Assembly (NCBI GenBank): GCA_041657405.1
Contig: JBBABX010000002.1
Coordinates: 42,726 to 106,725 of the forward strand
DNA from: Minisyncoccota bacterium
Lineage (GTDB): Bacteria > Patescibacteriota > Minisyncoccia > Phycocordibacterales > XYD1-FULL-46-19
DNA length: 64,000 bases
Direction: 5' to 3'
The notes beneath the pieces were generated by a model, which was not told the origin of the DNA, ran no database searches, and worked only from the letters and a program-made list of their open reading frames with translations. Made by a program: the position numbers and the translations under genes. This document shows, piece after piece, positions 6,463 to 37,447 of the stretch (the stretch's first letter is position 1; each line of letters starts with the position of its first letter).

Positions 6463-6495
6463 CTTGGAAATTTCAAATTTCTAAGCCAAAAATAG

Positions 6496-7825: not shown

Positions 7826-8887
7826 CTAGAGACCCTCTTCGCGGAGGTCCTCAATGATTTTTTTAGCTTTTTTTGAAAGTTTGTTTGGAGTAGGAAAAGT
7901 GACTCGAACCAAAAGATTGCCCCGGTGGTTGTGCCCATTTGGGACACCCCTATCTTTTACTCGTAGCATTTCACCATAAGTTATTCCGGCGGGAATACTC
8001 AGAGTCATATCTCCCTCAAGTGTTTTTAATTTATAATCAGTCCCTAAAATAGCATCGGTCATCTTGATTTTTATATCAGATAACAAGTCGTTGCCAGAAC
8101 GGCGCCACATTTCATCTCGTTCGACATGAATTTTTACATAAAGATCACCACTTCTTCCGTCTATAATTGCTTCTCCGCGTTCAGACATTCTGATCATCTC
8201 GCCATTATTTATACCAGACGGTATCTTGACCTGCACCTCATCGTCTTTTTTGTAGACTCCTTCTCCACCACAAACGTGACATTTTTTTTCGGGGATTTTC
8301 CCGCGACCATGGCAAGTTGGACAAGTTTTAGCTGTTTGGAAAGTGCCTAAAATAGAACGCACGGTTTCTTTTATTTGGCCTGTTCCTTTGCAAGTTTCGC
8401 AATTTTTGATCTTGGCACCCTTTTCAGCGCCAGTGCCATTGCAGAAATCACAAATTCCAACTTTGTTTATTAATAGTTTGCGTTCGGTGCCAAAGATTGA
8501 TTCTTTGAAGGTTATTAAAATATCTACCGAAATATCTCGACCACGCTTGACCTTAGTTTGATGACTTCCACCAAAAATATCACCAAAAATATCACCCAAG
8601 TCAAATTCAAACGAGCCACCTTGGCCACCAGTAAAACCGGAAAAATCCCAACCGCCAGTTGGCCCGCCTTGACCGTTAAAACCACCAGAGCCAAATTGAT
8701 CATATTGGGCGCGCCTTTTGTCGTCTGACAAAATTTGATAAGCTTCGTTAACTTCTTTAAATTTGGCCTCGTCGCCGTTTGTTTTGTCAGGATGATATTT
8801 GTGAGCTAGTTTGTGGAAAGCCTTTCGAATATCTTCTTTCGAAGCGTTTCTTTCAATCCCCAATATTTTATAGAAATCTTTATCCAT
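7826..8887 (-). CDS. dnaJ: molecular chaperone DnaJ
   Basis: It has a J-domain (YKILGI...HKYHPDK), a G/F-rich linker, four CxxCxGxG zinc-finger repeats and a C-terminal substrate-binding domain. Confidence 0.95.
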   Translation of the reverse strand: MDKDFYKILGIERNASKEDIRKAFHKLAHKYHPDKTNGDEAKFKEVNEAYQILSDDKRRAQYDQFGSGGFNGQGGPTGGWDFSGFTGGQGGSFEFDLGDIFGDIFGGSHQTKVKRGRDISVDILITFKESIFGTERKLLINKVGICDFCNGTGAEKGAKIKNCETCKGTGQIKETVRSILGTFQTAKTCPTCHGRGKIPEKKCHVCGGEGVYKKDDEVQVKIPSGINNGEMIRMSERGEAIIDGRSGDLYVKIHVERDEMWRRSGNDLLSDIKIKMTDAILGTDYKLKTLEGDMTLSIPAGITYGEMLRVKDRGVPNGHNHRGNLLVRVTFPTPNKLSKKAKKIIEDLREEGL

Positions 8888-15849: not shown

Positions 15850-18366
15850 TTACTCTACAATCTTTTTTTCGATCTTTATCTCTATTTTTGAATTGTCTTG
15901 AGGTACTTTTTTAATCCAAGGTGGTCGAAAAACAATATTTGCTTTAGTTATTTCCGAATATGAGGCAAAAACATTGTTATATTCATTTTTAGGAGTTTTT
16001 TTAAGATCTTCTTTTAGAGAATTTTCATCAAATTGCCAAATAACATAACCGATTCCTTGTAAATTAAAAGAAAATGAATTTAAATTTTCGGGATTTAAAT
16101 TTTCTTTATCTAATAAAGTAAAATTAAGTTCTTCTAAATTAACAACATCAACTTTGTCTTCCCCGGTCCATCCAGGAATGGCTTTGGCCAAATATTGGCT
16201 TAATTCAGCTTGATCAAACAAAATGCCGGTGGCGGTTATTTTGCCTCTAACGACCACCTTGTCTGAATCAACTTCTGTTGATGTAGCTATTTCAACAGAA
16301 AAACGAGTCAGGATAGCATCATCAAATAAAATATAATTTTCTGGAACCTGTTGTTTTATTTTTTGCACTATTTTTGCCTGCAGACTGCTTTTCATTGTTT
16401 CTTCTAAGGTAGACATATCATTTTCAGAAATTTTTGGTCTTTGCCCGACAAAACCACCACTAATTGGAGTTTTTGATTTGGCGATAATCTTGGCAAATTT
16501 TGGTGAACCAGTAAACCCAGGGATAGTAAAGTCAACTAAACCAAGATTGTGTTCCGGTCCGGCTTTATCAGCATAAACGGTTACTTCTAATTGTCCTGGC
16601 AAAGTCTCGCCGTTTTCTCCTTTGTGTGTACCCGGAATAGTTACCGGCTCAGCAATCCTATAAATATTGCCATTGGGCGCTTGGAAACGAGTTTTTTCTA
16701 CTAAGGGTTGAGAATTTGAACTATAATTATTTATTATTACAATTTGGCCACTAGCTTTTATGGCGACATTCTCGCTTCCTGACGCAGTTACCGAGGTTGA
16801 CTCTGATTCCTCAATATTTTCAGCTAAAACAAAATTTAAACCATTTTCTCCTTCTTTGGTGGCAATATAAGTATTAGAAACATCTAATTGTCCTTGTTTT
16901 GGTTGAATATTTACAATTGCTTTCGCAAAAATATTAGAAAAAACAAAACCGCCAATACTTATAACTAAAATTACAGACAATAAAATTAGCAGGCCACCCA
17001 AACGGAAACAATGTTTGGTTTTTGTTCTTGTTGTATTTAAAGATGGCATCGACTCTTTAGATTCTATTTTAGTTTTTTTGCCTCCAACTTCTGGAAATAT
17101 TTCACGAAGACTTTTTTTGTTTTTTACAATATCTTGCATGTTTTTTAAAGTATTAATAAAATAAAAATTACTTGGATTTTCATTTAGTTTATCACAAAAT
17201 AGCGCTTCGGCCAAAACAAAGGTGTTGGTAATCTGGCCAGGGCTATTTATAGGTTCATATGTTAGCATTTTTTTGTCAATGAAGCCAACAGAAAGATAAT
17301 TTCTGGGAGAAAGCAGGAAGTCTGAAAGATTAGTTTTTTTGATCCAATTGGCTAATAAAAAATCTGAGTCATCATAACCGATAAGATAAACGCGTTCAGG
17401 AATAAAAACTGTTTCGGCGATTTGATCAATGGTTTTTTGAAATAAATTTGACCAACTGATAAAAATTTTCTCTAAAGCTTGATTGGCACGAGTAGTCGCA
17501 ATTTGGCTAGTTTTTTTACCCATTACTAATTTCAGAAGTGATTCAGCTTCGGCTGGCACGGTTCCAGAAAGTTCGGCTAATTTTTTTATAATTTGACGAT
17601 GTCCAAAAGGAAAAGTGCGATGTTCAATCAAAATACCATCAACAATCACCATTATATCAGTAATATCCCCCGCGCTGTCTATTAACAAAAAATCTTTTTC
17701 ATTTGCTAGAAGTTTTTTAAAAATAGAGTAAGCGGTATAAGTAAAAGATTGGAATCGAACAGAAGTTTCGGGAAAAAAATTTTCTATAACATTTTTTAAA
17801 TAACCCAAAAGAGAAGCTGAGCCAATACTTAGATATTGATTGATTTCTATGTTATTAGCAATTTGGCCAGAAATCTTATCAATTTTATAACCATCTAAGA
17901 TTACAGACATGATTTCATTTTCTATAATGACAGAATAATCGTTTAAGATTTCAGGATAAAGGGAAGGGTGTCTTGTTATAAAATCTTTTGCTGTTTTTTG
18001 GCTAAGTTCATAAATTTTTTGGGGAGTAACGGAAGTCTTTTTATCTGAATGCCAAACAATATTTTTTGTTTGAGTTATAAAATAAGGCGATGATAAAAAA
18101 CAAAAAACCACTTCGGGTTTATAAGAATTATCTTTTAATGTTTTTAAAACTTTTTCTAATCCTTGATTAATTTCTTTGAAATAATCTTTAAAAGTTGTTG
18201 ATTTTTGCGGAGATAGATAAATTTGAGTAAAAAATAAAATACTAGAAGAAATACTGAATTTATTCTTCTGACCAGCTTTAAAAATAGCACCACTAATTTG
18301 ATCACTACCAATATCAATAAGTGCAACCAAATTATTCCCCCTTTTTTTGCGTGACAAAAAAGACAT
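15850..18366 (-). CDS. large bitopic protein: N-terminal actin-like (ASKHA; FtsA/PilM-like) ATPase-fold domain, single TM helix, ~350-aa extracytoplasmic domain
   Basis: The N-terminus has LVALIDIGSDQISGAIF (phosphate-1-like) and a second DxG-type motif (LLIDSAGDITDIMVIVDGIL). A hydrophobic segment follows at about aa 455-480 (LGGLLILLSVILVISIGGFVFSNIF). The rest is a beta-rich, Thr/Asn-containing C-terminal region. Confidence 0.5.
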   Translation of the reverse strand: MSFLSRKKRGNNLVALIDIGSDQISGAIFKAGQKNKFSISSSILFFTQIYLSPQKSTTFKDYFKEINQGLEKVLKTLKDNSYKPEVVFCFLSSPYFITQTKNIVWHSDKKTSVTPQKIYELSQKTAKDFITRHPSLYPEILNDYSVIIENEIMSVILDGYKIDKISGQIANNIEINQYLSIGSASLLGYLKNVIENFFPETSVRFQSFTYTAYSIFKKLLANEKDFLLIDSAGDITDIMVIVDGILIEHRTFPFGHRQIIKKLAELSGTVPAEAESLLKLVMGKKTSQIATTRANQALEKIFISWSNLFQKTIDQIAETVFIPERVYLIGYDDSDFLLANWIKKTNLSDFLLSPRNYLSVGFIDKKMLTYEPINSPGQITNTFVLAEALFCDKLNENPSNFYFINTLKNMQDIVKNKKSLREIFPEVGGKKTKIESKESMPSLNTTRTKTKHCFRLGGLLILLSVILVISIGGFVFSNIFAKAIVNIQPKQGQLDVSNTYIATKEGENGLNFVLAENIEESESTSVTASGSENVAIKASGQIVIINNYSSNSQPLVEKTRFQAPNGNIYRIAEPVTIPGTHKGENGETLPGQLEVTVYADKAGPEHNLGLVDFTIPGFTGSPKFAKIIAKSKTPISGGFVGQRPKISENDMSTLEETMKSSLQAKIVQKIKQQVPENYILFDDAILTRFSVEIATSTEVDSDKVVVRGKITATGILFDQAELSQYLAKAIPGWTGEDKVDVVNLEELNFTLLDKENLNPENLNSFSFNLQGIGYVIWQFDENSLKEDLKKTPKNEYNNVFASYSEITKANIVFRPPWIKKVPQDNSKIEIKIEKKIVE

Positions 18367-18435: not shown

Positions 18436-20316
18436 TTATTCCAAAAGCGCTTTTATTCTTCTAATTCCTGCCGCAACAGCCTCTTCTTTTTTTATTTTGA
18501 AATGACCAAGTTCACCAGTACGCAAAACATGGGGCCCCCCGCAAAATTCTTTGGACCAAGCAGAATCAAGGTTGTCGCCAATGTAATAAATTGTCACTTT
18601 TTTGCCGTATTTTTCGCCAAAAAGGTGGTTGGCACCAGTTTTTTCCGCCTCGTCTTTTGGAAGTTCTACTTTATTGACTAGCAAATCAGCGGCAATTTTT
18701 TCGTTGACTAAATTCTCGATCGCCGTTTTTTGTTCCTCAGTTAGTTTGGCAGGATATGTAAAATCAAAACGCAAACGTTCATTAGTGATATTACTACCCT
18801 TTTGCGTTACCTCGGAACCTAAGATTTCTTTTAATGCTGCTTGCAAGAGATGGGTGGCAGTATGATATTTAATCACTTGTTTACTCTCATTAGCCAAACC
18901 ACCTTTGAATTTTTGGTCAGCACCGACACGAGATAGTTCTTGATGTTTTTGTAATTTGTTACCAAATTCCGTTTTTAGTTTTTCTTCTGCCTCTTTTGCT
19001 AATTTTAAACCGCGATTTTTGACTTCTTCCAAACCTAACTCAAGCGGAATACCAAAAGTCTGATAAAGATTAAAGAAAAACTCGCCTGACAAAACAGGGC
19101 TCGCAACTTCTTCTATTGCATCAATTGCCACATTTAGTTTGCCTGACAACTCTTTGTCAATAATCTTGATACCCGCCGCCAAGGTCTGGCGGAACTTCTC
19201 CTCTTCTTTTTTTAGTTCTGTGACAATTTTCTCTTTTTCAGTGGTCAATTCGGGATAAACATTTTCATATTTAGCAACAATCAAGTTTATTAAACGCTCG
19301 CTAAGATTATCGGGGACGCCTATTTTATTACTATAACGCATCGCGCGACGAATAATTCGACGTAAAACATAACCACGATCAGTATTGGTTGGTTTAACTC
19401 CAGCCGCAAACATAAAAACTGCTGTGCGAATATGGTCAGCAATAATTCTCTCAGCACGTTCGTCATTTTCTTGACTATGAGCGGAAATTTCTGCCAGTAA
19501 TAACGCAAAAATATCAGTTTGAAAGATGTTTATATTGTTCAAAACTGCGGTTGTGCGTTCTAAACCCATACCAGTATCAACATTCTTTTTTTCAAGTGGT
19601 TCGTAATCTCCATTTGTCGTCTTGTTAAATTCCATAAAGACATTATTCCAAATTTCAACCATACGAAAAGAATCTACTAGCTCTGTAAAACACTTATCCG
19701 GAAGAACATCTCCGGGGCAGGTGTCATAAAAAATCTCTGTGTCGCCACCACACGGACCATTTGCTCCCGCAATCCAAAAATTATCTTCTTGTCCTAGTGG
19801 AATAATTCGGACGTTTTCTCTTATTATTTCATCATTGCTGGCAATTTCAGCTTGCAAACCAACTTTGGCAAAAACTTCCTGCCAAATTTTTATAGATTCT
19901 TCATCATGAGGAATACCGTTTTCACCACGGAAAACTGTCACATAAAGACGTTTGGGATCCAAGCCTAAACCCTCTTTCTTGTCGGTTAAAAATTCAAAAC
20001 TCCAATTGATTGATTCTTTTTTAAAATAATCACCCAGCGACCAGTTACCCATCATTTCAAAAAAGGTTAAATGACGATTATCACCAACGTCATCAATGTC
20101 GTTAGTGCGGAGACATTTCTGGACATTAGTCAAACGATTGCCGGCCGGATGAGGTCGACCCAAGAGATAAGGAATTAGAGGTTGCATACCGGCGGTAGTA
20201 AAGAGAGTGCTTTCGTCTCCATAATCAGCAGGAATAAGAGAAGCTGAAGGAATTATTTTATGTCCCTTTTTTTCAAAAAAAGCCAAGAATTTTTGGCGAA
20301 TTTCTTCGGATGTCAT
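18436..20316 (-). CDS. alaS: alanyl-tRNA synthetase (catalytic plus editing domains; C-Ala domain absent)
   Basis: The N-terminus is FLAFFEKKGHKIIPSASLIP...FTTAGMQ. The editing domain has HTATHLL ... CGGPHV. It is only 626 aa, versus about 870 for full-length bacterial AlaRS. Confidence 0.95.
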   Translation of the reverse strand: MTSEEIRQKFLAFFEKKGHKIIPSASLIPADYGDESTLFTTAGMQPLIPYLLGRPHPAGNRLTNVQKCLRTNDIDDVGDNRHLTFFEMMGNWSLGDYFKKESINWSFEFLTDKKEGLGLDPKRLYVTVFRGENGIPHDEESIKIWQEVFAKVGLQAEIASNDEIIRENVRIIPLGQEDNFWIAGANGPCGGDTEIFYDTCPGDVLPDKCFTELVDSFRMVEIWNNVFMEFNKTTNGDYEPLEKKNVDTGMGLERTTAVLNNINIFQTDIFALLLAEISAHSQENDERAERIIADHIRTAVFMFAAGVKPTNTDRGYVLRRIIRRAMRYSNKIGVPDNLSERLINLIVAKYENVYPELTTEKEKIVTELKKEEEKFRQTLAAGIKIIDKELSGKLNVAIDAIEEVASPVLSGEFFFNLYQTFGIPLELGLEEVKNRGLKLAKEAEEKLKTEFGNKLQKHQELSRVGADQKFKGGLANESKQVIKYHTATHLLQAALKEILGSEVTQKGSNITNERLRFDFTYPAKLTEEQKTAIENLVNEKIAADLLVNKVELPKDEAEKTGANHLFGEKYGKKVTIYYIGDNLDSAWSKEFCGGPHVLRTGELGHFKIKKEEAVAAGIRRIKALLE

Positions 20317-23996: not shown

Positions 23997-25256
23997 TTAT
24001 AGAGGCAGATTAACCGGCGGTTCACCACGTTTAGATGGAATACGCGATAATGAGGGAGTTGTCGCTACTTGACCAGGGAAATGGTAGACTGTTGCCAATT
24101 CTTCGGTGGTTAACACCATTGGTTTTTTATTAGCTGGCGGATAAAAGTAAGCTCTTTCTCTAAAATATTTGAAAACCAGTTTTTTGATACGCCGAGTTCT
24201 AATATCATGAAAATCTTCCCAGGGATTTTCATAACTAGAAATATTAACTATCGGCTTGAAAGAATTCAAGCCAGGGGAGCCAAATTGTTTCATACTATTG
24301 TTTACTCCAACTTTGACAATCGGACGGATACTTTCTTTGGAAGCATAGATAGCACGAATTCCTACATCAAAACCTAATTTGCCAAGATGTCTTTCTATTG
24401 TTTCTGCCAGCGATCTTTCTCCTGGAGACATTGCTAATTTCATAAATGAACTCAAGTCTTCACTTTTTTCTTTGCGTTTTAGAATTTTTTGCAATTCCTC
24501 TTGGGCCGCGTCTTTCCAGCTTTTCATTTCCACTTTAGAGAAAAAATTATACCATTTTGCTTTTTCATTCTTTATAGGGAAACGATCCTTACTTCCCATA
24601 ACCAAAAATTGAAACCAAACTTGTTCGCCTTGCCTAATAGAACCCAAGAATTCTATTAGGGGTGTCATTGGATCAATCTTGTATTCTTCTTTAGGATCTT
24701 TTTCTAAGCCAAAATCATAATAAGTTTTTATTGGGTAAACATCTTCTTTCGCAAATTTCCATTCCCAACCAGCAATATCCCATGGCGAATCGGGTTGTCC
24801 AAAAGTTACCCCTTCTGTATAATCGTCAACTTGGAAAATCTCCACTTCCGGATATTGGGAATAAACTTGTGATTCTATTAAATCTTTGAAAAACTTAGGA
24901 ATGTTAAAATAAAAATGAATCTCACCTCCGAAAGAAACTACCTCTAAAGAAAACCAAGAACGAACATTGCCTTTAATATATTTATCAACTAATTCACCTT
25001 CATAAGTTTGATAAAAGACGTGGAGCAAAAGTTCCATCGCAGCCGGCGATTTATTAATCTCTTTGGGAATTTTGATTTCTAATAAAATACGTTCTTCTTT
25101 GCTGATAAAATTTTCTCTGATAAAAGCTAGGTAAGAATCCCAAAGAATATAGGCTAAAACAAAAGGCAAAAAATAAACAGTATAAGGAAGAGCCAAAAGA
25201 AGCCACCTCCCAGTGTCGCTCAAAAAAATTTCTGTAAGATTTAAAATAAAATTCAT
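23997..25256 (-). CDS. hypothetical membrane-anchored protein
   Basis: 419 aa with an N-terminal hydrophobic segment. Conserved-looking blocks are present (ILLEIKIPKEINKSPAAMELLLHVFY; VLTTEELATVYHFPG). No catalytic motif recognised. Confidence 0.4.
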   Translation of the reverse strand: MNFILNLTEIFLSDTGRWLLLALPYTVYFLPFVLAYILWDSYLAFIRENFISKEERILLEIKIPKEINKSPAAMELLLHVFYQTYEGELVDKYIKGNVRSWFSLEVVSFGGEIHFYFNIPKFFKDLIESQVYSQYPEVEIFQVDDYTEGVTFGQPDSPWDIAGWEWKFAKEDVYPIKTYYDFGLEKDPKEEYKIDPMTPLIEFLGSIRQGEQVWFQFLVMGSKDRFPIKNEKAKWYNFFSKVEMKSWKDAAQEELQKILKRKEKSEDLSSFMKLAMSPGERSLAETIERHLGKLGFDVGIRAIYASKESIRPIVKVGVNNSMKQFGSPGLNSFKPIVNISSYENPWEDFHDIRTRRIKKLVFKYFRERAYFYPPANKKPMVLTTEELATVYHFPGQVATTPSLSRIPSKRGEPPVNLPL

Positions 25257-25382: not shown

Positions 25383-26402
25383 TTAAACTAAGTAATAATT
25401 TCCACTTTCATCACGTTTGAAATACTTAGGATTTTGAAGATTGACAAGAATTGTGTTTTCTTTGACAAAACGTTCCTTTAAAACACGGTTGATAATTTCA
25501 TTTTTGGGCAAATTACCCGTCTCTTTAAGAATTTTAACCACAACATCAATAACAGTTCCGCTTGAATATCCCCATTCAGTTAAGGCATATAAACCACGAC
25601 CTACCAAAACAAATCGGCTGTCTTTTATCAATTCATTATGGCAAGTGGCAGGGTGGGCTTTTTTGCCAAAAGTTTGAATAATTCTATTCGCCACTTCAGT
25701 AAAATGCAAAGGAGTTTTGTTTTGCCGTAAAACAAGATAAGCATAATCGCGAATACCACGCATACGAATATTGGGTGAGCTATTTAATCCCCATTCTCCC
25801 AATGGATTTTTGGCCAACAATTTACAAATTTTTAACCATTCTCGCGCGAAATTTTCTACTTGAGGGTCATCTGAAAGATCATCAAGTTCTTTAACAAATT
25901 TAGAAATAAGTTCTGGTTCAGAGATTAAATCTCGTTCAGAAAAACCAGCACAAAGTTTGCGCAAAGATTGATGCACCCTAGTGGCCATATCTTGATTAAC
26001 AGTCCAACGATGATAGAATTCTTCATCTTCTTTGATTCTAACAAAAGCATCAGAAACTACCAATAAGAAATGAATATGGTTTTGGATTGATTCGTCTTTA
26101 GAGAAAGATTCTAAAAATGCTTGTTCGTGGACGACACCGCCATGTTCTTGCATTAAATTTTTAAGCTGTTCAAAAGTGCTAAGCGCTGAATCGTAAACTT
26201 TTGATTTTTTTATCAAATTTAACCCAAAATTTTCTATTTGTCGAACTCTTTCACGAGTGATCTTATACTCATTACCGATTGCTTCCAAGGTCAATCTTTT
26301 GCTGGTTTTACCTAGACCATAACGCTTTGTCAGAATGTCACGATTTCGTTCTGGCAAAATATTCAACAATTTTTTGGTAATTTCTTTTGGTTTTATAGAC
26401 AT
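25383..26402 (-). CDS. DNA-binding protein: N-terminal sigma-70 region-4-like HTH plus C-terminal HARE-HTH winged helix
   Basis: The N-terminus RYGLGKTSKRLTLEAIGNEYKITRERVRQIE is a region-4-type HTH. The C-terminus PLHFTEVANRI...HPATCHNELIKDSRFVLVGRGLYALTEWGY matches the HARE-HTH signature (TPEAT...RF.RVGRGL..L.EW). Confidence 0.55.
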   Translation of the reverse strand: MSIKPKEITKKLLNILPERNRDILTKRYGLGKTSKRLTLEAIGNEYKITRERVRQIENFGLNLIKKSKVYDSALSTFEQLKNLMQEHGGVVHEQAFLESFSKDESIQNHIHFLLVVSDAFVRIKEDEEFYHRWTVNQDMATRVHQSLRKLCAGFSERDLISEPELISKFVKELDDLSDDPQVENFAREWLKICKLLAKNPLGEWGLNSSPNIRMRGIRDYAYLVLRQNKTPLHFTEVANRIIQTFGKKAHPATCHNELIKDSRFVLVGRGLYALTEWGYSSGTVIDVVVKILKETGNLPKNEIINRVLKERFVKENTILVNLQNPKYFKRDESGNYYLV

Positions 26403-26499: not shown

Positions 26500-29400
26500 T
26501 CAAATATTTGTAGGAGCCAAAACAAAATTTATTAAACGATCTTTTACGTAGAGAGTTTTTTTAATAGAACGATCCTCTAGCCAGCATTTTATATTTGAGT
26601 TTTCTTTAGCTGTTTCAATTATCTCTTTTTCACTAGCGTTAGTTGCTACAATAATTGTGCCTCTAACCTTACCATTAACCTGAACAACGATTTTCAATTC
26701 TTGTTTGATTATTTTTTGTTCATCATAGATTGGCCAAGATGACAAATGAATGGATGTCTTATGCCCAAACCTAAACCATAATTCCTCAGTTAAATGAGGA
26801 GCAAAGGGCGCCAATAATTTGAGCATATTTTCAAAATCTGCTTGGTTAATTGCCAACTGTTTTTCCATTTCATTAGTTAATATCATCAAGGATGATATGG
26901 CTGTATTAAAGGCAAAATTAGAAATATCAGTGCTCACTTTTTTGATAGTTTGATGAATCTGACAAACTAAAGAACTTTCTTCTTGGAAAACTTTTACTTT
27001 CTCGGCTAAACGCCATACTTTTTCTAAAAAGCGCCGCGCACCAATCATATTCTCGGTTTGCCAAGAAGCCCCCGCCTCAAAAGGACCCATAAACATTTCA
27101 TAAACACGCAAAGTGTCCGCGCCATATAATTTGACCATTTCATCCGGGTTAATAACATTCCCCCAACGTTTAGACATTTTGCGACCGTCATTACCAGAAA
27201 TTAAACCTTGATTCTTTAATTTAGCAAAAGGTTCTTTCTCACTTACCAAACCAAGATCAAATAAAAATTTGTGCCAAAAACGAGCATAAATCAAATGTCT
27301 CGTTGCATGTTCGGTGCCACCAACATACATATCCACTTCTCGCCAGTATTTTTCTTTATCTTTAGAAACTAATGTTTCTTCATTTTGAGGATCCATAAAA
27401 CGAAGGTAATACCAAGAAGAACCTGCCCATTGAGGCATTGTATTTGTTTCTCGTCTAGCTGGGGCACCACAAATTGGGCATTTAACGTTAACCCATCTAG
27501 AGATACTGGCCAAAGGTGATTCGCCAGTATTTGTTAGGGTATAACTTTTTACTTTGGGTAATTTAATTGGTAATTTTTCTTTAGGTACTGGCACCACGCC
27601 ACATTTCTCGCAATGAATTATTGGGATCGGTTCACCCCAATAACGTTGACGTGAGAAGACCCAATCACGAAGTTTATATTTAACCACTTGGCGACCTCTG
27701 ACAAATTTGGTTATGGCTTTTTTTGCTTTTTCACTGGATAACCCTGAAAACTTGGGTCCAGCGTTGACTAAAATTCCAGGGTCAGTATGAATTATCAAAT
27801 CTTTATACCATTCATTTTTCGCCAATAAAGACCAGGGGGTTATGGATTCCTGTTTTTTTTCTTTAGAAAACTGCTCAATCTGTTTGTTTACCTCCGTGAC
27901 TGTTTCAGGCGACAAAACAATCCGCGCCATTTTACCTTTTCGGTCTTTAAACAAAAAAATTATACTATCACCAACATATTCGTTCCAATAGCCGGGTGAA
28001 AGTTTATTCCTGATCAATTTTTCGTAAACTGGCAATTTTTTAGCAGATAAAATTAACAGCCTGTCGCCGTTAGGTTTTTTCTCAAATATCTTAGCACCAA
28101 CTTCTTCTAATTCGCTATCAGAAATTTGGTTAGCACCAGTAAGATAACTTTTTATCGGCGCATTTTTCTTGGCAATACTTTGAATAACAGGTAAATTATA
28201 TTTTTGGGCAAAAGCAAGATCACGCAAATCATGCGCCGGCACCGCCATCACCGCACCAGTGCCATAATCAGGCAAAACATAATCAGCGATAAAGACGGGG
28301 ATTTCTCTGCCGTTAGAAGGATTAATAGCAGATAAACCTTTCAGCTCAACTCCGGTCTTTTCCCTGTCCTCGGTTGTTCGTTCTATCTCACTTTGTTTTC
28401 TTGTCTGTTTTTGGTATTTTTCAATATTCAGTTTGTTGTCAAAGATTGATAAATTTTTAACAACAAATTGGTGTTCTGGCGATAATACCAAATAAGTAGC
28501 CCCAAACAAAGTATCTGCGCGAGTAGTGAAAATTTTTATAGTATCCAAAATATTTTCCAAGACAGTTGGTTCTACGGTACCACAAGTATGGGTTTTTTTA
28601 GCTTCAAATTTAATTAGATTCCCACCTAAATTTTTTTGTAATTTTTCTCCTTGTTGTTCGTCTATCAAAAAATCTTTTTGGTCTTCTAAAATTACTATCT
28701 CTCCGGCATTTTTTTTGATTTTAGAAAAATTAAATTTCCAATTTACCAAAATACTAACTTCTGGCCTTTCTTTATCTTTAAATTTTGGTTCCATCAAACC
28801 AGAAACTAGAACAAATTTTTTGATTGGATTTTTTAAACGTTCCAAGATTCGCAAACCAACAACTGTCCCCAAACTATGCCCAATCAAAACAGTATTTTCA
28901 TCAAAAATGATATTTTTCATCACAAATTCTACTTGGTTAGCCACATTTGGCAAAAAAGGATTAGGCAATTGTGGCACTATTACTTGATGACCACGTTTTT
29001 CCAATTCTCGCTTAAGCCATGGGAACCAACAGTATTTAGGTCCACTTTTATAACCGTGTAAAATAACAAATTTTAATTTTTTAGTTTTTAATTCAAAATT
29101 TATCTCTATTCCCTCACTACGACCAATCCAATTACGTTGAGATTCCTTAATGGATTCTGGCCAGGCTAAATCGGTTAAATCTTCAAGTAAGCGGTCAGCA
29201 TAATCAGTAATTTTTAATACCCATTGACGCATTGGCCTTTTTTCCACCTCTGAACCACAACGCTCGCATTTGCCATTCTCCAGATCTTCATTAGCAAGTC
29301 CTGTTTTACAAGATGGACACCAATTAATCGGCTCATAGGATTGATACGCCAAACCTTTTTGGAAAAGTTGCAAAAAAATCCATTGCGTCCACTTATAATA

Positions 29401-29841
29401 TTTTGGATCTGTTGTATTTATTTCACGAGACCAGTCATAATCAAGCCCAATAATTTTTAATTGTTCTTTGAAATGTTTGATATTTTTCTTGGTCGCAATT
29501 TCGGGATGAATTTTATTTTTGATAGCGTAATTTTCGGTCGGTAAACCAAAAGCATCCCAACCCATTGGGTGAAGAACATTAAAACCACTCATTCGTTTAT
29601 AACGAGAATAGATATCTGTTCCAATATAACCCTTGGGATGCCCAACATGCAGACCCTCTCCTGAGGGGTATGGAAACATATCTAAAATGTAACACTTATC
29701 TTTTTTTGAGTTATCTTTAGTTTGATAAATTTTGGATTGACGCCATTCTTTTTGCCACTTTGATTCTATCTTTTTATGGTCATATTTATTAGAAATTTTG
29801 GCTTTGAAAACTTTCTTCTTAGACGTCATTTTAAGATACAT
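26500..29841 (-). CDS. leuS: leucyl-tRNA synthetase carrying an inserted RBBP9/YdeN-type serine hydrolase domain
   Basis: Class I HVGH (HVGHPKGY) and KMSKR motifs are present. The CP1 editing domain (TTRADTLFGATY), anticodon-binding and C-terminal domains are present. An extra ~180 aa lies between WIGRSEG and the editing domain: ILHGYKSGP...TVLIGHSLGTV...FVLVSG...HTCG. Confidence 0.95.
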   Translation of the reverse strand: MYLKMTSKKKVFKAKISNKYDHKKIESKWQKEWRQSKIYQTKDNSKKDKCYILDMFPYPSGEGLHVGHPKGYIGTDIYSRYKRMSGFNVLHPMGWDAFGLPTENYAIKNKIHPEIATKKNIKHFKEQLKIIGLDYDWSREINTTDPKYYKWTQWIFLQLFQKGLAYQSYEPINWCPSCKTGLANEDLENGKCERCGSEVEKRPMRQWVLKITDYADRLLEDLTDLAWPESIKESQRNWIGRSEGIEINFELKTKKLKFVILHGYKSGPKYCWFPWLKRELEKRGHQVIVPQLPNPFLPNVANQVEFVMKNIIFDENTVLIGHSLGTVVGLRILERLKNPIKKFVLVSGLMEPKFKDKERPEVSILVNWKFNFSKIKKNAGEIVILEDQKDFLIDEQQGEKLQKNLGGNLIKFEAKKTHTCGTVEPTVLENILDTIKIFTTRADTLFGATYLVLSPEHQFVVKNLSIFDNKLNIEKYQKQTRKQSEIERTTEDREKTGVELKGLSAINPSNGREIPVFIADYVLPDYGTGAVMAVPAHDLRDLAFAQKYNLPVIQSIAKKNAPIKSYLTGANQISDSELEEVGAKIFEKKPNGDRLLILSAKKLPVYEKLIRNKLSPGYWNEYVGDSIIFLFKDRKGKMARIVLSPETVTEVNKQIEQFSKEKKQESITPWSLLAKNEWYKDLIIHTDPGILVNAGPKFSGLSSEKAKKAITKFVRGRQVVKYKLRDWVFSRQRYWGEPIPIIHCEKCGVVPVPKEKLPIKLPKVKSYTLTNTGESPLASISRWVNVKCPICGAPARRETNTMPQWAGSSWYYLRFMDPQNEETLVSKDKEKYWREVDMYVGGTEHATRHLIYARFWHKFLFDLGLVSEKEPFAKLKNQGLISGNDGRKMSKRWGNVINPDEMVKLYGADTLRVYEMFMGPFEAGASWQTENMIGARRFLEKVWRLAEKVKVFQEESSLVCQIHQTIKKVSTDISNFAFNTAISSLMILTNEMEKQLAINQADFENMLKLLAPFAPHLTEELWFRFGHKTSIHLSSWPIYDEQKIIKQELKIVVQVNGKVRGTIIVATNASEKEIIETAKENSNIKCWLEDRSIKKTLYVKDRLINFVLAPTNI

Positions 29842-32736: not shown

Positions 32737-35700
32737 TTAATTGGAATTTGGTATTTCTTGGACCGTTTTTCGAGGCCATCTAGCTAAAATAAGTGGAATT
32801 AAAAGTAGGGTCAAAACCACCGAAAAAATCATTCCGAACATTACTGTGAATGCAAGCGGGCCCCACATCGCATTAACAAAAATCAAGGGTATCATCCCAA
32901 TAAAAGTGGTAGTCGTCGTAAGTAAAATAGGACGCAAACGTGTGGTAGCTGCTTCAATAGCCGCCTCTTGCAATGGGAGCTTTCTTTCCTGACGTTCTCG
33001 TTCAAATTGATCAATAATTAAAATAGTGTTGTTTACAATTATTCCTGCCAAAGCAATAAAACCAAGAATAGAAGAAAAACTTAAGGCTTGCCGAGAAATC
33101 AACAAACCAACAAAAACCCCGATCAATGATAATGGAATAATCATTAGTGTATAAAAGGCATAACGGAAAGAATTAAACTCCAAAACTAAAATTACCAACA
33201 TTAACAAAACACCCAGAATAAGTGCTTGCAACATTTCTGTAAAAGTTTTCATCATATCTTCTGTTTCACCCCCGGCCGTGATTTGCACATTGTAAGATTG
33301 TTCCATTTCTGTTTTGTGAGTAAATAATTCATTAATAACCTCTGAAGCTGTTGTCCCCTTATGAAGATATCCGCTAACAGTAATTAAACGATCCCCATTC
33401 TCGTGTTCAATGGTGGAGTGTCCTTTTTCAATTGAACGTTCCAAAATTGAACCAAGTAAAATATTCCCTTGTGGGGTAGATACTGACAATTGACTAATGG
33501 CTTCCATCACAGTTTCGTTGGTCCGACCAGGCAAATTTTGACCAGGATTCAAACCAACTTTAACAAAAACATCGATATCCTCACCCCCTTGTCTGATTTT
33601 TGTCGCTGAAACCCCATAAATTGAAGAACGTAGGGTTTGGGCAATAGTCATAGCATTTAGACCAAATTCAGTCGCGAGATCTCGATTTAAAGTCAAAACC
33701 AAGTCAGATAATTCATCATCCGCGCTTATTGTAATATCTCTAGCGCCACCAATTTTATCCAAATAATCTTTGACGGCAGCTGCTGCTAAACTTAGAGAAT
33801 TTAAATCTTCACCTGTTATTTTTATTTCTAAGGGTGCGCCCGTGGGTGGGCCTTCAGATGGTTCCATAACCATTATTTTAGCTTCTGTCATTAAATCTGT
33901 TGAATCTTTTATTTTGGCTAAAATTTCTGAACTCGTCTGTTTTCGATTTTTTTTCAAAGTCATTGTAATATTGCCCAAATTTTCGCCAGAACCACTAACA
34001 CCAAAATTGAACATTGAAGCCGAGCCAACACTTGTGATAAAAGATTCAATGTCATCAATTTCATACAAAACCTCTTCCACCGCGCGCACGGCCAAATCAG
34101 TCTTCTCTAAATCGGTACCTTTTAATTTTTCAATATCAATATAAAGATAATCTACATCAGATTGTGGAAAAAAGACGGTTTCCACCAAGCCTGATAGCGG
34201 TAAGCCAAATGAAAAGATAAAAGCAATAATTAATCCCCAAAATAATTTATTTTGTCTTCGTTGATCTTGGAAAAACCAACGTAATTTATTACGATACCAA
34301 TTACGCAAACGATGGCTAGTTTCTTCTTGCCGGCGACCAAGTTTGGAGGTATTTTCACCTTTTTTTACCACCAAAACTGTTAAAATTGGCACGACAGCCA
34401 AAGCAACAAAAATTGAAGCTAAAAGAACAAAAATTGTAGTATAAGGAATACTGGCAATAAATTTACCAACAATCCCAGATAGAAAGAAAAGTGGAAAGAA
34501 AACAGCAATAGTGGTCATGGTGCCAGAAATGAGTGGCCAACTATATTCACTCACAGTTTCGCGCGCTGCTTCAAATTTGCTATGTCCCATATTGAAACGA
34601 GAATAAATTGATTCCACCACAACAATGCCTGAGTCAACCAAAATTCCAATTGCCAAAATAAGAGAAAATAAACTAATAAAATTTATTGTGTTACCACTAT
34701 TTTTTAGACCGATAAAAGCAATCAAAAATGAAAGTGGAATAGACAATCCGGCAACAATCGCTTCGCGCCAGCCAATAGTCAAAAACAGAACAAGCATCAC
34801 CAAAGCGACTGTTTCCAATCCTGTTGTTATCAAACGACGAAGATCGTCTTTTATCATTTGCGAGATATCAAAAGAAATTAAAACCTCACTATTTTGTAAT
34901 TGATTTTTCTCTAATTCAAATAATTTCTTTTTGACAGTGTCACCAATTTTTGTAATATCACCACCAGCTTTTTTGTAAATAGACAAGGTTATTGCTTGGA
35001 CAGAAGGTTGTCCGTTTTTACTAAAACGATCCAAACTTTTTGCCTCTTCGGCGCCATTATAAACAGTGGCAATGTCACGCAAATAAATTATTCTCCCATC
35101 GCGTGAAGTTATCGGTAAATTTACCACTTCATCAGCATTGTCTAAATCTCCAGCAAATTTTAAATTATAGTTAACACCATCAACTACCAATCCCCCGATT
35201 GGCAAAGAGGCATTGGCAACTGAAATTGATTGAATAATTTCATTTAAACTAACTCCAAAGCTGTCTAATTTGCCTTTGTCAACAATCACGTTAACCTCTC
35301 GCTTTCGATCTCCAGTCATTAAGATCTTTGAAACCCCAGCAGTAGACTTTAAATTACTTCGAGTATCTTCCGCTAAAACAGCAAACTCCGTTGCTGGCAA
35401 TTCTGAAGAAATAGATACCATCATAATCGGTTGGTCAGCAAAATTTATTTCCATAACCATCGGATCTTCAGCTCCACTTGGTAATTCTGGTTTAAGTTTA
35501 TCAAGTTCGTCTTTGAGCTTTTGAATTGATTTATCAATATCAGCGCTGGTTTCAAATTCTACAACAACGGTTGAAACCCCCAAACCAGAAGAGGATGTTA
35601 TTTGGGTTAAATTTTCTAGATTATTTAAACCATCTTCCAATTTATTAGTAACCAATTTTTCCATATCCTCAGCCGAAGCGCCAGGATAAACAGTTGTAAT

Positions 35701-35841
35701 GATTCCCATTGGAATTTGCACTTCAGGAGTAGATTCTTTGGGAATAGTAAAATAAGAAATCAAGCCAAAGATTATAATCCCAACAATCAATAAATAAGTA
35801 AATTGCCTTTTATGCAAAAAAAATGACCAAAAATCTTTCAT
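32737..35841 (-). CDS. RND-family efflux transporter permease (AcrB/HAE1-like)
   Basis: 1034 aa with 12 TM helices and two large loops. The N-terminal MKDFWSFFLHKRQFTYLLIVGIIIFGLISY…PEVQIP is typical of AcrB. Confidence 0.95.
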   Translation of the reverse strand: MKDFWSFFLHKRQFTYLLIVGIIIFGLISYFTIPKESTPEVQIPMGIITTVYPGASAEDMEKLVTNKLEDGLNNLENLTQITSSSGLGVSTVVVEFETSADIDKSIQKLKDELDKLKPELPSGAEDPMVMEINFADQPIMMVSISSELPATEFAVLAEDTRSNLKSTAGVSKILMTGDRKREVNVIVDKGKLDSFGVSLNEIIQSISVANASLPIGGLVVDGVNYNLKFAGDLDNADEVVNLPITSRDGRIIYLRDIATVYNGAEEAKSLDRFSKNGQPSVQAITLSIYKKAGGDITKIGDTVKKKLFELEKNQLQNSEVLISFDISQMIKDDLRRLITTGLETVALVMLVLFLTIGWREAIVAGLSIPLSFLIAFIGLKNSGNTINFISLFSLILAIGILVDSGIVVVESIYSRFNMGHSKFEAARETVSEYSWPLISGTMTTIAVFFPLFFLSGIVGKFIASIPYTTIFVLLASIFVALAVVPILTVLVVKKGENTSKLGRRQEETSHRLRNWYRNKLRWFFQDQRRQNKLFWGLIIAFIFSFGLPLSGLVETVFFPQSDVDYLYIDIEKLKGTDLEKTDLAVRAVEEVLYEIDDIESFITSVGSASMFNFGVSGSGENLGNITMTLKKNRKQTSSEILAKIKDSTDLMTEAKIMVMEPSEGPPTGAPLEIKITGEDLNSLSLAAAAVKDYLDKIGGARDITISADDELSDLVLTLNRDLATEFGLNAMTIAQTLRSSIYGVSATKIRQGGEDIDVFVKVGLNPGQNLPGRTNETVMEAISQLSVSTPQGNILLGSILERSIEKGHSTIEHENGDRLITVSGYLHKGTTASEVINELFTHKTEMEQSYNVQITAGGETEDMMKTFTEMLQALILGVLLMLVILVLEFNSFRYAFYTLMIIPLSLIGVFVGLLISRQALSFSSILGFIALAGIIVNNTILIIDQFERERQERKLPLQEAAIEAATTRLRPILLTTTTTFIGMIPLIFVNAMWGPLAFTVMFGMIFSVVLTLLLIPLILARWPRKTVQEIPNSN

Positions 35842-35842
35842 A

Positions 35843-37447
35843 TCATTTTACAATTTTTACCTTTTCACCTTCTTGCAAACCACGTGCGTCAATAACAAAA
35901 GCTTTATTAGGCAAGAGACCTTTCACTAAGATTTTGTCCCCATCTATTGGACCTTCTTCAATTGGTGTTGCGATTAATTCACTAGAAGTAGAAACTGTAA
36001 AAATAACCATTTCATTCGGTAAAATTTTAACTGCAGACAAGGGGATAGGCAAATATTCAGCTTTAACTAAATTTTTCTCGGATTTGACTTGTGCTATTTC
36101 CAAAGATACTGATTGACCATTCACAATATCAGAATTCTCTTCATTATTTAAAGAAATTTTAACTTCTATTTTTTTAGTAATTGGGTCTAAGGCAGGAGCC
36201 AAGCCAACAACCTTACCAGTAAACAAACCATCAATTACAACTGGCGCCCCTATTTCAACTGCACTCCTTTCATTTTCAGTAATATAAGCAATTATTTCCA
36301 AACTGCCATTATTGGATACAAAAGCCGCTTGTTGAGTTGAAGAAACATAATCACCCAACTTTATACTTAAACTATTAATTGTTCCCGTGATCGGTGAACG
36401 GATATAAGTTTTTTCCAAATTTATTTTGGCAGCTTCATAAGCAGCACGCGCTTGTTCCACCATCGCTTCGCCAGAAGTCAAAATATCACTCGAAGATTCA
36501 TAGGCAACTCTTTTAGCGTTATAACCCTCCAAACTAGACAAGAGAGAACTAATAACTCCATTAACCGACGACCTTGTGCTAGATATTGTAGTTTTATAAC
36601 TGTCTATTACCTGTTGATGAGAAGCATCACTAACTTTTAGACTGTTTATCAAACCAGCGGCTTGTTCAAGCATTTCGCTTATTTTACCCAAATCAACTCT
36701 GGCAAGCTCTACTTCTTGTCGCAAAGTCTCATAGTAAGAGTCTTGGGCATTGATAGATTCCAAACGAGTATTCCAAGTTGATAATATTTCATTCATTTCC
36801 AATCTTTTCTGATATAAATCAAATAAAGTTTTGGCATTAGCTGAATAATCAAAACTATAAGAAGTTCCTCCAACCAAAAAGGAAGTTTTAAATTTGGGGT
36901 TTGCCGTGTTTGGATTTTCGTAAAATTTATCAAGTTGATTATAAATAGCATCATCAGCTGTTGCGTAGGCTGTTTTTAAAGAATTAATTAGAAGTTGTTT
37001 AGCTTCAATTAAACCAGCCTGACCAATTATTAATTGTGATTCAGCACTTTTTAAAGCAGCGTAAGCACGATTGACTTCATTTTTTTGTGCGTCATTATCT
37101 ATCATCGCAATAATCCCCCCAGCTGAAATATTATCTCCCAATTGTTTATAAATTGCCTTAATAACCCCCCCAGCTTCAGTTTTGATATTTACTTCATTAA
37201 TTGAACGAACCAGACCAGAAAGAGGTAAATAATTTTCTTGAGTAGCAATTGTCGCAGCTGTTGTTAATTTTACTTCTTTTAAAATCTCCTTATCTTCCAA
37301 CGACTCGGTTTTTGAGAGACCAAAATATAAAATAGCTAAGATTATTAAAAGACCAACAGCAAAAAGTAAGGCAATCTTTTTTTGTCTCAAAGTTTGTTTT
37401 AAGCTCTTTTCACCAGCTTCTTCTATTTTTTTCCAACTAAATATCAT
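35843..37447 (-). CDS. RND efflux periplasmic adaptor (membrane fusion protein, HlyD-like)
   Basis: It has an N-terminal TM anchor, a long coiled-coil hairpin and C-terminal beta-barrel/MP domains. It lies 1 nt upstream of the RND permease. Confidence 0.85.
   Translation of the reverse strand: MIFSWKKIEEAGEKSLKQTLRQKKIALLFAVGLLIILAILYFGLSKTESLEDKEILKEVKLTTAATIATQENYLPLSGLVRSINEVNIKTEAGGVIKAIYKQLGDNISAGGIIAMIDNDAQKNEVNRAYAALKSAESQLIIGQAGLIEAKQLLINSLKTAYATADDAIYNQLDKFYENPNTANPKFKTSFLVGGTSYSFDYSANAKTLFDLYQKRLEMNEILSTWNTRLESINAQDSYYETLRQEVELARVDLGKISEMLEQAAGLINSLKVSDASHQQVIDSYKTTISSTRSSVNGVISSLLSSLEGYNAKRVAYESSSDILTSGEAMVEQARAAYEAAKINLEKTYIRSPITGTINSLSIKLGDYVSSTQQAAFVSNNGSLEIIAYITENERSAVEIGAPVVIDGLFTGKVVGLAPALDPITKKIEVKISLNNEENSDIVNGQSVSLEIAQVKSEKNLVKAEYLPIPLSAVKILPNEMVIFTVSTSSELIATPIEEGPIDGDKILVKGLLPNKAFVIDARGLQEGEKVKIVK

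Follow-up and report, generated by a model that had tools for sequence, protein, structure and literature searches.

Few enzymes have been studied as intensively as the aminoacyl-tRNA synthetases (aaRSs), and the proofreading carried out by their editing domains is textbook knowledge. In the leucyl-, isoleucyl- and valyl-tRNA synthetases (LeuRS, IleRS and ValRS) the editing domain CP1 is itself a hydrolytic module inserted in the synthetase and acts on aminoacyl esters; it is universal and ancient, and uses no covalent serine nucleophile. Other small hydrolases of aminoacyl-tRNA quality control, namely YbaK/ProX, AlaX and DTD, are either fused to a synthetase or separate from it. To our knowledge, no alpha/beta-hydrolase deacylates aminoacyl-tRNA. 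The alpha/beta-hydrolase BPHL (valacyclovirase) is specific for alpha-amino-acid esters and has been reported to hydrolyse homocysteine thiolactone. A class Ia synthetase with an extra catalytic domain is described by NCBIfam NF040702 (isoleucine--tRNA ligase, N-acetyltransferase domain-containing), whilst inteins and Rickettsia palindromic elements recur as in-frame insertions within essential, conserved proteins. Lastly, RBBP9 and Bacillus subtilis YdeN (PF06821) are alpha/beta-hydrolases of about 180 aa that have no lid and carry their catalytic residues in the order Ser-Asp-His.

The window analysed here, a stretch of 64,000 nucleotides from a contig of a Minisyncoccota bacterium (JBBABX010000002.1), encodes a LeuRS that contains a domain sharing the family, fold, size, residue order and lack of a lid of RBBP9 and YdeN. 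However, the known members of that family are free-standing, whereas this domain sits within a loop of a different enzyme. It also belongs to a separate subfamily, in which EQ303, D387 and E424-P425 replace W, S and G, and the amine-binding Glu108 of RBBP9 has no securely aligned conserved equivalent in it, only the nearby Asp356 being conserved (74/115). Unlike CP1, to whose fold it is unrelated, the insert is confined to CPR bacteria and DPANN archaea, can be exchanged, and has counterparts encoded by genes of their own. Its occurrence in fused or separate form parallels that of YbaK/ProX, AlaX and DTD, but it has no sequence or fold relation to them and any activity on tRNA is conjectural. 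NF040702 gave a weak profile match to the protein, although the extra enzyme in that family is a GNAT. BPHL is likewise a serine alpha/beta-hydrolase acting on aminoacyl (thio)esters, the type of by-product that editing synthetases form; however, it comes from another alpha/beta-hydrolase family, is larger, lidded and eukaryotic, and has no association with a synthetase. In contrast to inteins and Rickettsia palindromic elements, the insert is not spliced out, codes for a full enzyme whose active site is conserved, and lacks both a homing endonuclease and terminal repeats.

The host synthetase

The leuS ORF (26500..29841, minus strand, as are all features below) encodes 1113 aa and is 100% identical to P0057, the same gene in the JGI record, where the start codon is placed at Met5 to give 1109 aa. 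The whole protein scored 994 bits against TIGR00396 (leuS_bact, cutoff 548) and its best PDB match was LeuRS of T. thermophilus (E=6e-208). LeuRS structures also occupied the top ranks of a Foldseek search with the predicted model. Both motifs of the synthetic site are present. The HIGH motif (HVGH, aa 65-68, 29638..29649) has H65, G67 and H68 invariant in an alignment of 95 relatives, and the KMSKS-type loop (KMSKR, aa 888-892, 27166..27180), located by alignment with T. thermophilus LeuRS, has M889 and K891 invariant, with K888 and S890 almost so. The CP1 editing domain is inserted after the ZN1 module, and its core (aa 435-566, 28144..28539; PF13603, 179.6 bits) contains the T-rich editing motif FTTRADT (aa 438-444, 28510..28530), in which F438, T439, T440, R441, D443 and T444 are invariant among the same 95 relatives, as are Asp538 and Asp541 of the AHDLRD segment. 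From these intact motifs we infer a functional bacterial-type LeuRS, capable of both aminoacylation and editing. The hydrolase as a substitute for a lost CP1 function was ruled out by the invariance of the editing residues; it would therefore add an activity rather than replace editing.

Position and identity of the insert

An earlier sequence-only reading had noted, at 28543-29079 (aa 255-433), a segment of about 180 residues where a canonical LeuRS has about 15-20. Alignment with T. thermophilus LeuRS bears this out and places the domain at aa 259-434 (28540..29067). The alignment stops at query residue 258 (Tt 243) and restarts at 435 (Tt 243), defining a clean insertion of 176 aa between WIGRSEG (aa 238-244, 29110..29130), the final canonical segment ahead of it, and FTTRADT, two blocks that are about 19 residues apart in the canonical enzyme. 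The insertion had also been said to lie before CP1. It does directly precede the start of the T-rich editing site, four residues ahead of the motif, but it lies within the first hairpin of CP1 and not before the domain. More precisely, it occupies the tip of the first CP1 beta-hairpin, of which strand 1 (IEINFEL, aa 245-251, 29089..29109) aligns with AEILFPV of T. thermophilus and corresponds to strand 241-251 of the AF2 model. The linkers joining the hydrolase to this hairpin are 2-5 residues long. The full-length AF2 model (pLDDT 89.9, pTM 0.81) exceeds 90 through both junctions and over most of the insert, and in this model the hydrolase is rigidly mounted on CP1 by these very short linkers.

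The assignment to the RBBP9/YdeN-type serine hydrolases, originally made from motifs, was substantiated by profile and structure-database searches. The insert alone scored 37.7 bits against PF06821 (Ser_hydrolase, E=2.6e-9), above the gathering threshold of 22, and the full protein scored 33.4 bits; PF00561 gave 38.2 bits with the insert alone. PDB matches of the insert were to YdeN (1uxo, E=4.7e-13) and RBBP9 (E=6e-11). The motifs on which the assignment had been based (HG262-263, GHS323LG, FVLVSG and H418) are all real. Neither the profile nor the PDB searches revealed homology to the CP1, YbaK/INS, AlaX or DTD editing folds, only alpha/beta-hydrolase models being matched, and any editing role of the insert would therefore be analogous rather than homologous to known editing domains.

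The predicted active site is complete. His262-Gly263 (29053..29058), after hydrolase strand 1, would form the oxyanion hole and is conserved in 111 (His) and 115 (Gly) of 115 embedded homologues. The predicted nucleophile is Ser323 (28873..28875) in the GHSLG elbow, which is aligned with Ser75 of RBBP9 and conserved in 114/115. Asp390 (28672..28674), aligned with RBBP9 Asp138, is the predicted catalytic acid (Asp/Glu in 111/115). His418 (28588..28590; 113/115) is the predicted base and is followed by the subfamily-specific Glu424-Pro425; it falls one residue off RBBP9 His165, as read by eye beyond the end of the PDB alignment. In the AF2 model the serine follows strand 317-322 and precedes helix 324-335, the aspartate follows strand 379-387 and the histidine lies in the loop after strand 408-412, a predicted order of strands and helices that is canonical for the alpha/beta-hydrolase fold. 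The alternative of an ordinary variable region lacking a triad was not borne out: the triad is conserved in relatives and the confident model has the canonical topology. Triad and HG motif are retained in 111-115 of the 115 embedded copies, although identity among the copies is otherwise only about 42%, and the subfamily signature can be written as HG...EQ...GHSxG...D..D/E...H-x5-EP. Conservation of the cassette among the closest relatives (0.74-0.77) is nearly equal to that of the synthetase core (0.79-0.80). By these sequence features the domain is a complete and apparently active serine hydrolase. Since the motifs of the hydrolase and of the synthetic site are intact, as are the editing residues of CP1, the protein has two predicted hydrolytic sites in addition to its synthetic site. 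An RNA-binding surface deduced from charge was not supported, because the embedded domains, with a median pI of 6.5, show no marked basicity.

The protein also carries a second insertion that the sequence-only reading had missed and that is unrelated to the first. It comprises 118 aa (aa 567-684, 27790..28143), falls in a gap relative to T. thermophilus LeuRS 372-377 and is modelled as a ferredoxin-like module (AF2 pLDDT 86) with generic fold matches only; Pfam gave no match to it. A NUDIX domain occupies this site in relatives. The present module is unrelated to the NUDIX inserts at the same site, to which it has no profile similarity. NUDIX, HAD_2 and LMWPc (LMW-phosphatase) domains are other small hydrolases inserted in the LeuRS or IleRS of relatives. 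Their presence in other loops of the same synthetases is in keeping with a general tendency of these proteins to take up small enzymes.

Distribution among synthetases and other hosts

Of the top 120 LeuRS homologues, 115 have an insert at the same site that is as long as the hydrolase (>150 aa). In total, more than 180 independent LeuRS genes, from Patescibacteria and from DPANN-labelled genomes, carry the hydrolase, mostly at the very site described here. The sequence-only reading had raised the possibility of a lineage-wide insert; it is lineage-wide, and its spread goes far beyond one lineage. Relatives of the hydrolase are encoded by 507 GTDB species representatives, and the best 80 are all embedded in large ORFs. 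Retrieval of the LeuRS fusions needed the full-length query, since a word-indexed search with the insert alone returned free-standing hydrolases only. No archaeal or bacterial marker was found among the flanking genes of the DPANN-labelled loci. Several of the LeuRS genes are labelled 'alpha/beta fold hydrolase' in public records, and these names are annotation errors. Full-text literature searches, whose coverage excluded subscription journals, returned no published account of a hydrolase within LeuRS.

Members of this subfamily, here termed Q-type, are not confined to the LeuRS hairpin. In the IleRS of Saccharibacteria the domain is inserted 13 aa ahead of WTTTPWT, which is the homologous hairpin, and in ValRS and AlaRS it is inserted at sites that differ from the LeuRS hairpin. 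LeuRS itself has a second site for the same subfamily, after CP1. Moreover, Q-type hydrolases are inserted in Fmt, Der, SecA and UvrA (one representative each) and in archaeal Kae1, whilst PepN carries a W-type copy. Among the best 150 representatives, LeuRS is the host of 44 of the 50 embedded Q-type clusters. By our own count, most of roughly 15 separable insertion events fall in aaRSs or aminoacyl-tRNA enzymes. Discordance between cassette and core shows that hydrolase cassettes have been swapped between leuS lineages, which looks like modular or mobile behaviour and not tight co-adaptation. Stand-alone and embedded forms interconvert repeatedly, as judged from nearest-neighbour distances without a rooted tree. 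Rare copies lack the nucleophile (GFDLG in P0208) or the HG motif (VG in P0175).

Stand-alone relatives beside leuS

Of 7 informative contexts of stand-alone Q-type hydrolases, 5 place the hydrolase gene directly upstream of a leuS that lacks the insert. Four of them (P0180, P0192, P0204 and P0218) lie 3-37 nt upstream of leuS, with a different upstream context in each case, and P0193 is the first gene of a tight operon (L090) that encodes two successive hydrolases, a YbaK-like tRNA_edit protein, Ham1 and an archaeal-type leuS. The LeuRS encoded next to P0180 has 809 aa. P0215 lies 1.35 kb from leuS, and one stand-alone member, P0225, has no adjacent aaRS gene. Both bacterial- and archaeal-type leuS genes have Q-type neighbours. 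In the control set of W-type free hydrolases none had an aaRS neighbour (0/3). The Q-type subfamily is therefore tied to LeuRS in two independent ways, by fusion and, when separate, by adjacency to leuS.

Proposed function and alternatives

The best overall explanation is that the protein combines an intact LeuRS with an embedded, active-site-complete hydrolase that acts in synthetase quality control, to which we give a probability of about 0.45. That the hydrolase activity is in some way functionally coupled to the synthetase is probable, since the genomic association, by fusion and by adjacency, favours a link with LeuRS. The only characterised relative is RBBP9, a serine aminopeptidase that needs a free alpha-amine (PMC8866121). 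By analogy with this enzyme, we tentatively propose an alpha-aminoacyl (thio)ester hydrolase that attacks aminoacyl species made by, or escaped from, the synthetase. The target would be an alpha-aminoacyl carbonyl bearing a free alpha-amine, and an aminoacyl-Ser323 intermediate would form. The likeliest substrate would be the ester of a mischarged aminoacyl-tRNA with which CP1 copes poorly; alternatively, the hydrolase could act on small by-products, for instance aminoacyl-adenylates or homocysteine thiolactone. LeuRS, IleRS and ValRS are named among five homocysteine-editing synthetases in PMC5370406. The domain would then serve as a second quality-control hydrolase, of different chemistry, attached to the editing domain. 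Several points weigh against this mechanism: homology to RBBP9 is remote, so that its substrate preference is not safely transferable; CP1 is fully intact, leaving no evident editing gap to fill; the swapping of cassettes between leuS lineages, the lack of marked basicity, the unrelated small hydrolases in the same synthetases and the position of P0225 away from aaRS genes also count against it. A broader generalisation is more doubtful still, namely that Q-type RBBP9/YdeN hydrolases may be an unrecognised class of translation quality-control factors with an alpha/beta-hydrolase fold and a serine nucleophile, clearing mischarged aminoacyl-tRNA, aminoacyl-adenylate or homocysteine thiolactone and repeatedly recruited by editing synthetases (LeuRS, IleRS, ValRS and AlaRS) of CPR bacteria and DPANN archaea, either as a cassette in the editing domain or as an upstream operon partner.

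The strongest competitor, a serious one although we would not put it at even odds, is that the hydrolase is a housekeeping enzyme with a job unrelated to tRNA charging, such as a general esterase, aminopeptidase or house-cleaning activity. As a compact, insertion-tolerant module it would have lodged in, or become co-operonic with, constitutively expressed essential genes of streamlined CPR and DPANN genomes, LeuRS being the most permissive and commonest carrier. The Q-type copies in SecA, UvrA, Der and Kae1 and the W-type copy in PepN fit this well and also count against coupling, as none of these hosts handles aminoacyl esters; those in SecA, UvrA and Der in particular keep a moonlighting function alive. 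The NUDIX, HAD_2 and LMWPc inserts in the same synthetases are other small house-cleaning hydrolases, and the operon that begins with P0193 includes the house-cleaning ITPase Ham1. Moreover, the cassette/core discordance points to modular exchange, the two forms have interconverted repeatedly, the domain has no basic surface and CP1 editing is intact. Against this, LeuRS is the dominant host, and most insertion events lie in aaRSs and aminoacyl-tRNA enzymes, although such enzymes account for just a few percent of all genes. LeuRS and IleRS were struck at the structurally equivalent hairpin beside the editing motif, and the leuS-specific adjacency recurs in different contexts but is absent from the sister W-type clade. 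An aminopeptidase that clips N-terminal hydrophobic residues from imported peptides, so that auxotrophs would have a local source of Leu, Ile or Val for the synthetase, is unlikely. In its favour, amino-acid auxotrophy is widely reported for CPR bacteria, the synthetases for the three branched-chain amino acids are the main hosts, a W-type copy is fused with the M1 aminopeptidase PepN, and RBBP9 removes N-terminal hydrophobic or aromatic residues (PMC8866121). Against this, free amino acids diffuse, so that fusion would bring a small kinetic gain; the insert sits on the editing domain, away from the amino-acid entry of the synthetic site; the YbaK-like deacylase in the same operon points to quality control; and the SecA, UvrA and Der hosts are left unexplained.

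Two further readings carry very little weight. The rigid mounting by very short linkers, together with the rare copies that lost the nucleophile or HG motif, would suit a catalytically dead structural or tRNA-binding module that adds surface to CP1. This is most improbable given that 96-100% of the 115 otherwise divergent copies retain Ser, His, the acid and HG and that the domain shows no basic shift. Least probable of all, to the point of being negligible, is an assembly chimera or an intein-like segment removed from the mature protein. The GC content does dip over the insert (0.28-0.31 against 0.34-0.41 in the flanks) and conserved essential proteins are targeted, as they are by inteins. 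However, an assembly artefact was ruled out because the same in-frame architecture recurs in more than 180 independent assemblies. An intein or homing element was also ruled out, in agreement with the sequence-only reading: Pfam gave no Hint, LAGLIDADG, HNH or other homing-endonuclease match in the insert, and the junction sequences (...TKKLK|FVILHG and ...NILDT|IKIFTT) have no Cys, Ser or Thr at the N-junction and no His-Asn at the C-junction. No target-site duplications or terminal repeats were found at the junctions. The two copies of a 29-nt direct repeat of 72% identity (28595-28623 and 29085-29113) do not flank the insert, and their similarity probably arose by chance in AT-rich sequence.

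Implications

Fusion to a synthetase, together with a recurrent place in the leuS neighbourhood, is the classic signal of a missing functional partner, and the hydrolase that gives this signal belongs to a major uncultivated bacterial radiation, where hundreds of species have it. Should it act on aminoacyl esters, a new fold and a new covalent-catalysis chemistry would join the factors of translational quality control, and if the Q-type hydrolases do form such a class, minimal cells would possess a second, mechanistically distinct proofreading site. If it does not act on aminoacyl esters, the class Ia synthetases of CPR and DPANN would be carriers of exchangeable small-enzyme cassettes (Ser_hydrolase, NUDIX, HAD and LMW phosphatase), an unusual route of protein building for streamlined genomes. 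The IleRS version of the architecture occurs in Saccharibacteria, a group that has cultivated members.

Results

A single minus-strand ORF at 26500-29841 (leuS, 1113 aa) contains the whole finding. By sequence similarity its product is a bacterial-type leucyl-tRNA synthetase (LeuRS), scoring 994 bits against TIGR00396 (cutoff 548). The closest solved structure was T. thermophilus LeuRS (E = 6e-208), and LeuRS crystal structures were the top matches to an AlphaFold model of the full-length protein (pLDDT 89.9, pTM 0.81). Alignment to the Thermus enzyme gave four blocks. The first block ends at query 258/Thermus 243 and the alignment restarts at query 435/Thermus 243, leaving a clean 176-aa insertion to which window positions 28543-29079 (aa 255-433) correspond; a second gap, from query 566 to 685 (Thermus 372-377), is an insertion of 118 aa. 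The WIGRSEG block (aa 238-244) is therefore 193 residues from FTTRADT (aa 438-444), the T-rich motif of the CP1 editing domain, compared with about 19 in canonical LeuRS, bearing out the unusual spacing reported in the sequence-only reading. In an alignment of 95 sequences the CP1 editing residues (T439, T440, R441, D443, T444, D538, D541) and synthetic-site residues (HIGH H65, G67, H68; KMSKS M889, K891) were invariant. Invariance of the editing residues argues that the hydrolase supplements editing and is no substitute for it. Thermus and E. coli LeuRS have a leucine-specific domain (~60 aa before KMSKS) that this protein lacks, at query 882-888 in the Thermus alignment; only five residues occupy its position (27181-27195, minus strand, aa 883-887), as in 120/120 relatives.

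Searched alone, the first insert scored 37.7 bits against Pfam PF06821 (Ser_hydrolase, gathering threshold 22) and 38.2 bits against the generic alpha/beta-hydrolase model PF00561, and matched the structures of B. subtilis YdeN (1uxo, E = 4.7e-13) and human RBBP9 (E = 6e-11). The same reading had proposed an RBBP9/YdeN-type hydrolase that is not an intein, and both claims stand: the Pfam search gave no intein, Hint or endonuclease signal and splice-junction residues are absent. RBBP9 Ser75 and Asp138 align with Ser323 (GHSLG) and Asp390, and His418, read by eye past the alignment end, is offset by one residue from RBBP9 His165. The secondary structure predicted by AF2 is the canonical arrangement, with strand 317-322, Ser323 and helix 324-335 in order, Asp390 behind strand 379-387 and His418 behind strand 408-412. 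Linkers of about 5 and 2 residues join the domain to the host hairpin strands (241-251, 434-439) and pLDDT is mostly above 90 across the domain and both junctions, and so in the model the hydrolase seems to sit rigidly on the first CP1 hairpin, at its tip, 4 residues ahead of the T-rich motif. No repeats bracketing the insert were found at its junctions. A 29-nt direct repeat (72% identical, 28595-28623/29085-29113) joins the first host hairpin strand and the last hydrolase strand, and is probably an AT-rich chance match. Within 28400-29150, GC content is 0.28-0.31 across the insert versus 0.34-0.41 in the leuS flanks.

An identical LeuRS (P0057, 1109 aa) lies on a 173-kb JGI contig. Inserts of hydrolase length (>150 aa) were present at exactly the same site in 115 of the 120 best LeuRS homologues, so the insert is common to related LeuRS; carriers are labelled Paceibacterota/Parcubacteria, Vogelbacteria, Woesebacteria and Taylorbacteria, among others. 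Mean cassette identity is just 42%, and the 115 embedded copies keep Gly263 (115), Ser323 (114), His418 (113), His262 (111) and Asp/Glu390 (111). As judged from these alignments, the insert is real, under selection and widespread. When GTDB species were scanned with one genome each, 507 had a relative; at the best 80 loci the domain was always embedded, in ORFs that were either complete, with 875 aa or more, or cut by a contig end. Searching 1.84 billion representatives exhaustively with a profile gave 4215 family members at E≤1e-3, of which 85 reached E≤1e-30.

Of these 80 loci, 19 come from MAGs with an archaeal label (Woese-, Pace- or Nanoarchaeota, or 'archaeon'), yet they encode a bacterial-type LeuRS with the insert (loci L012-L017, L019, L020, L023, L024, L029, L033, L034, L044-L046, L054, L058, L060), the L012 protein scoring 906 bits against TIGR00396. 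This suggests either that the fused gene has passed between CPR bacteria and DPANN archaea or that there was mis-binning; the flanking genes examined at these loci included no archaeal or bacterial domain marker.

Embedded copies differ from ordinary free-standing CPR/DPANN hydrolases (W-type), which form a separate clean clade, by Gln303 for Trp, Asp387 for Ser and Glu424-Pro425 for Gly-Pro. Stand-alone proteins of ~180 aa bearing this embedded (Q-type) signature were also recovered by the exhaustive search. Four lie directly upstream of leuS: P0180 by 7 nt (LeuRS of 809 aa, insert-free), P0192 by 25 nt (957 aa, NUDIX the sole insert), P0204 by 37 nt (801 aa) and P0218 by 3 nt (bacterial leuS). 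A fifth, P0193, opens the L090 operon (4001-8549, GCA_020049755.1, JAHZTO010004402.1), in which two Ser_hydrolase genes, a YbaK-like tRNA_edit (aminoacyl-tRNA editing) domain, a Ham1 ITPase and an archaeal-type leuS follow one another with overlapping stop and start codons. P0215 is 1.35 kb from leuS, P0225 has no aaRS neighbour and P0187 is on a contig too short for context. None of three W-type control hydrolases had a synthetase neighbour. Since the upstream contexts vary, the hydrolase-leuS pair is itself the conserved unit, and these contexts are the strongest new evidence for the tie to leuS. Moreover, the nearest relatives of each stand-alone gene are LeuRS-embedded cassettes of different subclades, pointing to repeated interconversion of separate and inserted states.

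Q-type domains were also found in other hosts. In IleRS of Saccharibacteria, a Ca. Nanosynbacter MAG among them, 13 residues separate the domain from the WTTTPWT that follows it, and the hairpin is the equivalent of the LeuRS site; in ValRS, and at a second LeuRS site, it follows CP1. Two Saccharibacteria MAGs (L078 2438-7057, L066 2762-7627; incl. Ca. Nanosynbacter sp.) encode IleRS of 1540-1622 aa with three inserted enzymes, in this order: a NUDIX or LMW phosphotyrosine phosphatase, a Q-type Ser_hydrolase shortly ahead of WTTTPWT and, inside CP1, a second, very divergent Ser_hydrolase. NUDIX inserts, at site 2 or ahead of the hydrolase, and HAD_2 inserts are likewise present in related LeuRS. 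Metagenome proteins P0213, P0245, P0251, P0256, P0236, P0240 and P0302, each a single representative, show as assembled Q-type domains in SecA, UvrA, Der/EngA, Fmt, AlaRS and archaeal Kae1 and a W-type copy within aminopeptidase PepN.

Cassette and core distances were correlated (Mantel r = 0.57, 0/999 permutations). Two pairs are sharply discordant: P0134 and P0175 share 88% of core but 30% of cassette identity, whereas P0082 and P0102 share 61% and 78%. Cassettes have therefore been swapped between leuS lineages at a fixed site.

Elsewhere in the window, AlaRS (18436-20316, minus strand) has just 626 aa, stopping directly after the tRNA_SAD editing module, and apparently has none of the C-terminal (C-Ala) domain that bacterial AlaRS typically carry. 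At 32737-37447 (minus strand) a full-length AcrB-type RND transporter (1034 aa) adjoins an HlyD-type membrane-fusion protein; the two resemble part of a tripartite efflux system, which is somewhat unexpected for Patescibacteria. Directly downstream of leuS, one gene (25383-26402, minus strand) encodes both sigma-70 region 4 and HARE-HTH domains. Two minus-strand ORFs, of 838 aa (15850-18366) and 419 aa (23997-25256), had no Pfam match at E≤1e-5. Coding-strand bias is strong across 1-64000: 58 ORFs have 120 aa or more, and 45 of these are on the minus strand; of the 13 on the plus strand, several overlap a minus-strand ORF. Over 26-32.5 kb most windows have negative GC skew.

Discussion

Full-text searches found no literature description of a hydrolase within LeuRS, and a 2026 survey of domain insertions cites LeuRS solely for CP1 itself. 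Such proteins are already in public databases, in some records misnamed 'alpha/beta fold hydrolase'. Synthetases with an extra inserted catalytic module are a known kind, of which this LeuRS is one, with a Ser_hydrolase.

As read from sequence, an intact and conserved serine-hydrolase active site is nested in the editing domain of a synthetase, and editing domain and synthetase are intact as well; the Q-type subfamily is linked to leuS by fusion and by operon, and we infer that hydrolase activity and synthetase are coupled. Of the family, only RBBP9 has been characterised; it clips N-terminal amino acids, strictly requires a free alpha-amine and has been studied with a Ser75-to-Dap trap capturing the acyl-enzyme intermediate (PMC8866121). 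By analogy, this chemistry would transfer naturally to aminoacyl esters or thioesters, and candidate substrates would be mischarged aa-tRNA, aminoacyl-adenylate or homocysteine thiolactone; homocysteine editing is carried out by five synthetases, LeuRS, IleRS and ValRS among them (PMC5370406).

The main rival is that the domain is an unrelated housekeeping enzyme carried on essential genes. SecA, UvrA and Der as hosts, the insertion of NUDIX, HAD and LMWPc domains in parallel, the exchange of cassettes and the absence of a basic surface from the hydrolase domain all favour it; set against it is the stand-alone pairing with leuS. An aminoacyl-(thio)ester quality-control hydrolase would be the likeliest function, at roughly one in three. 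There is a credible, if less than even, chance that with the hydrolase-bearing LeuRS we see proofreading factors of a new class.
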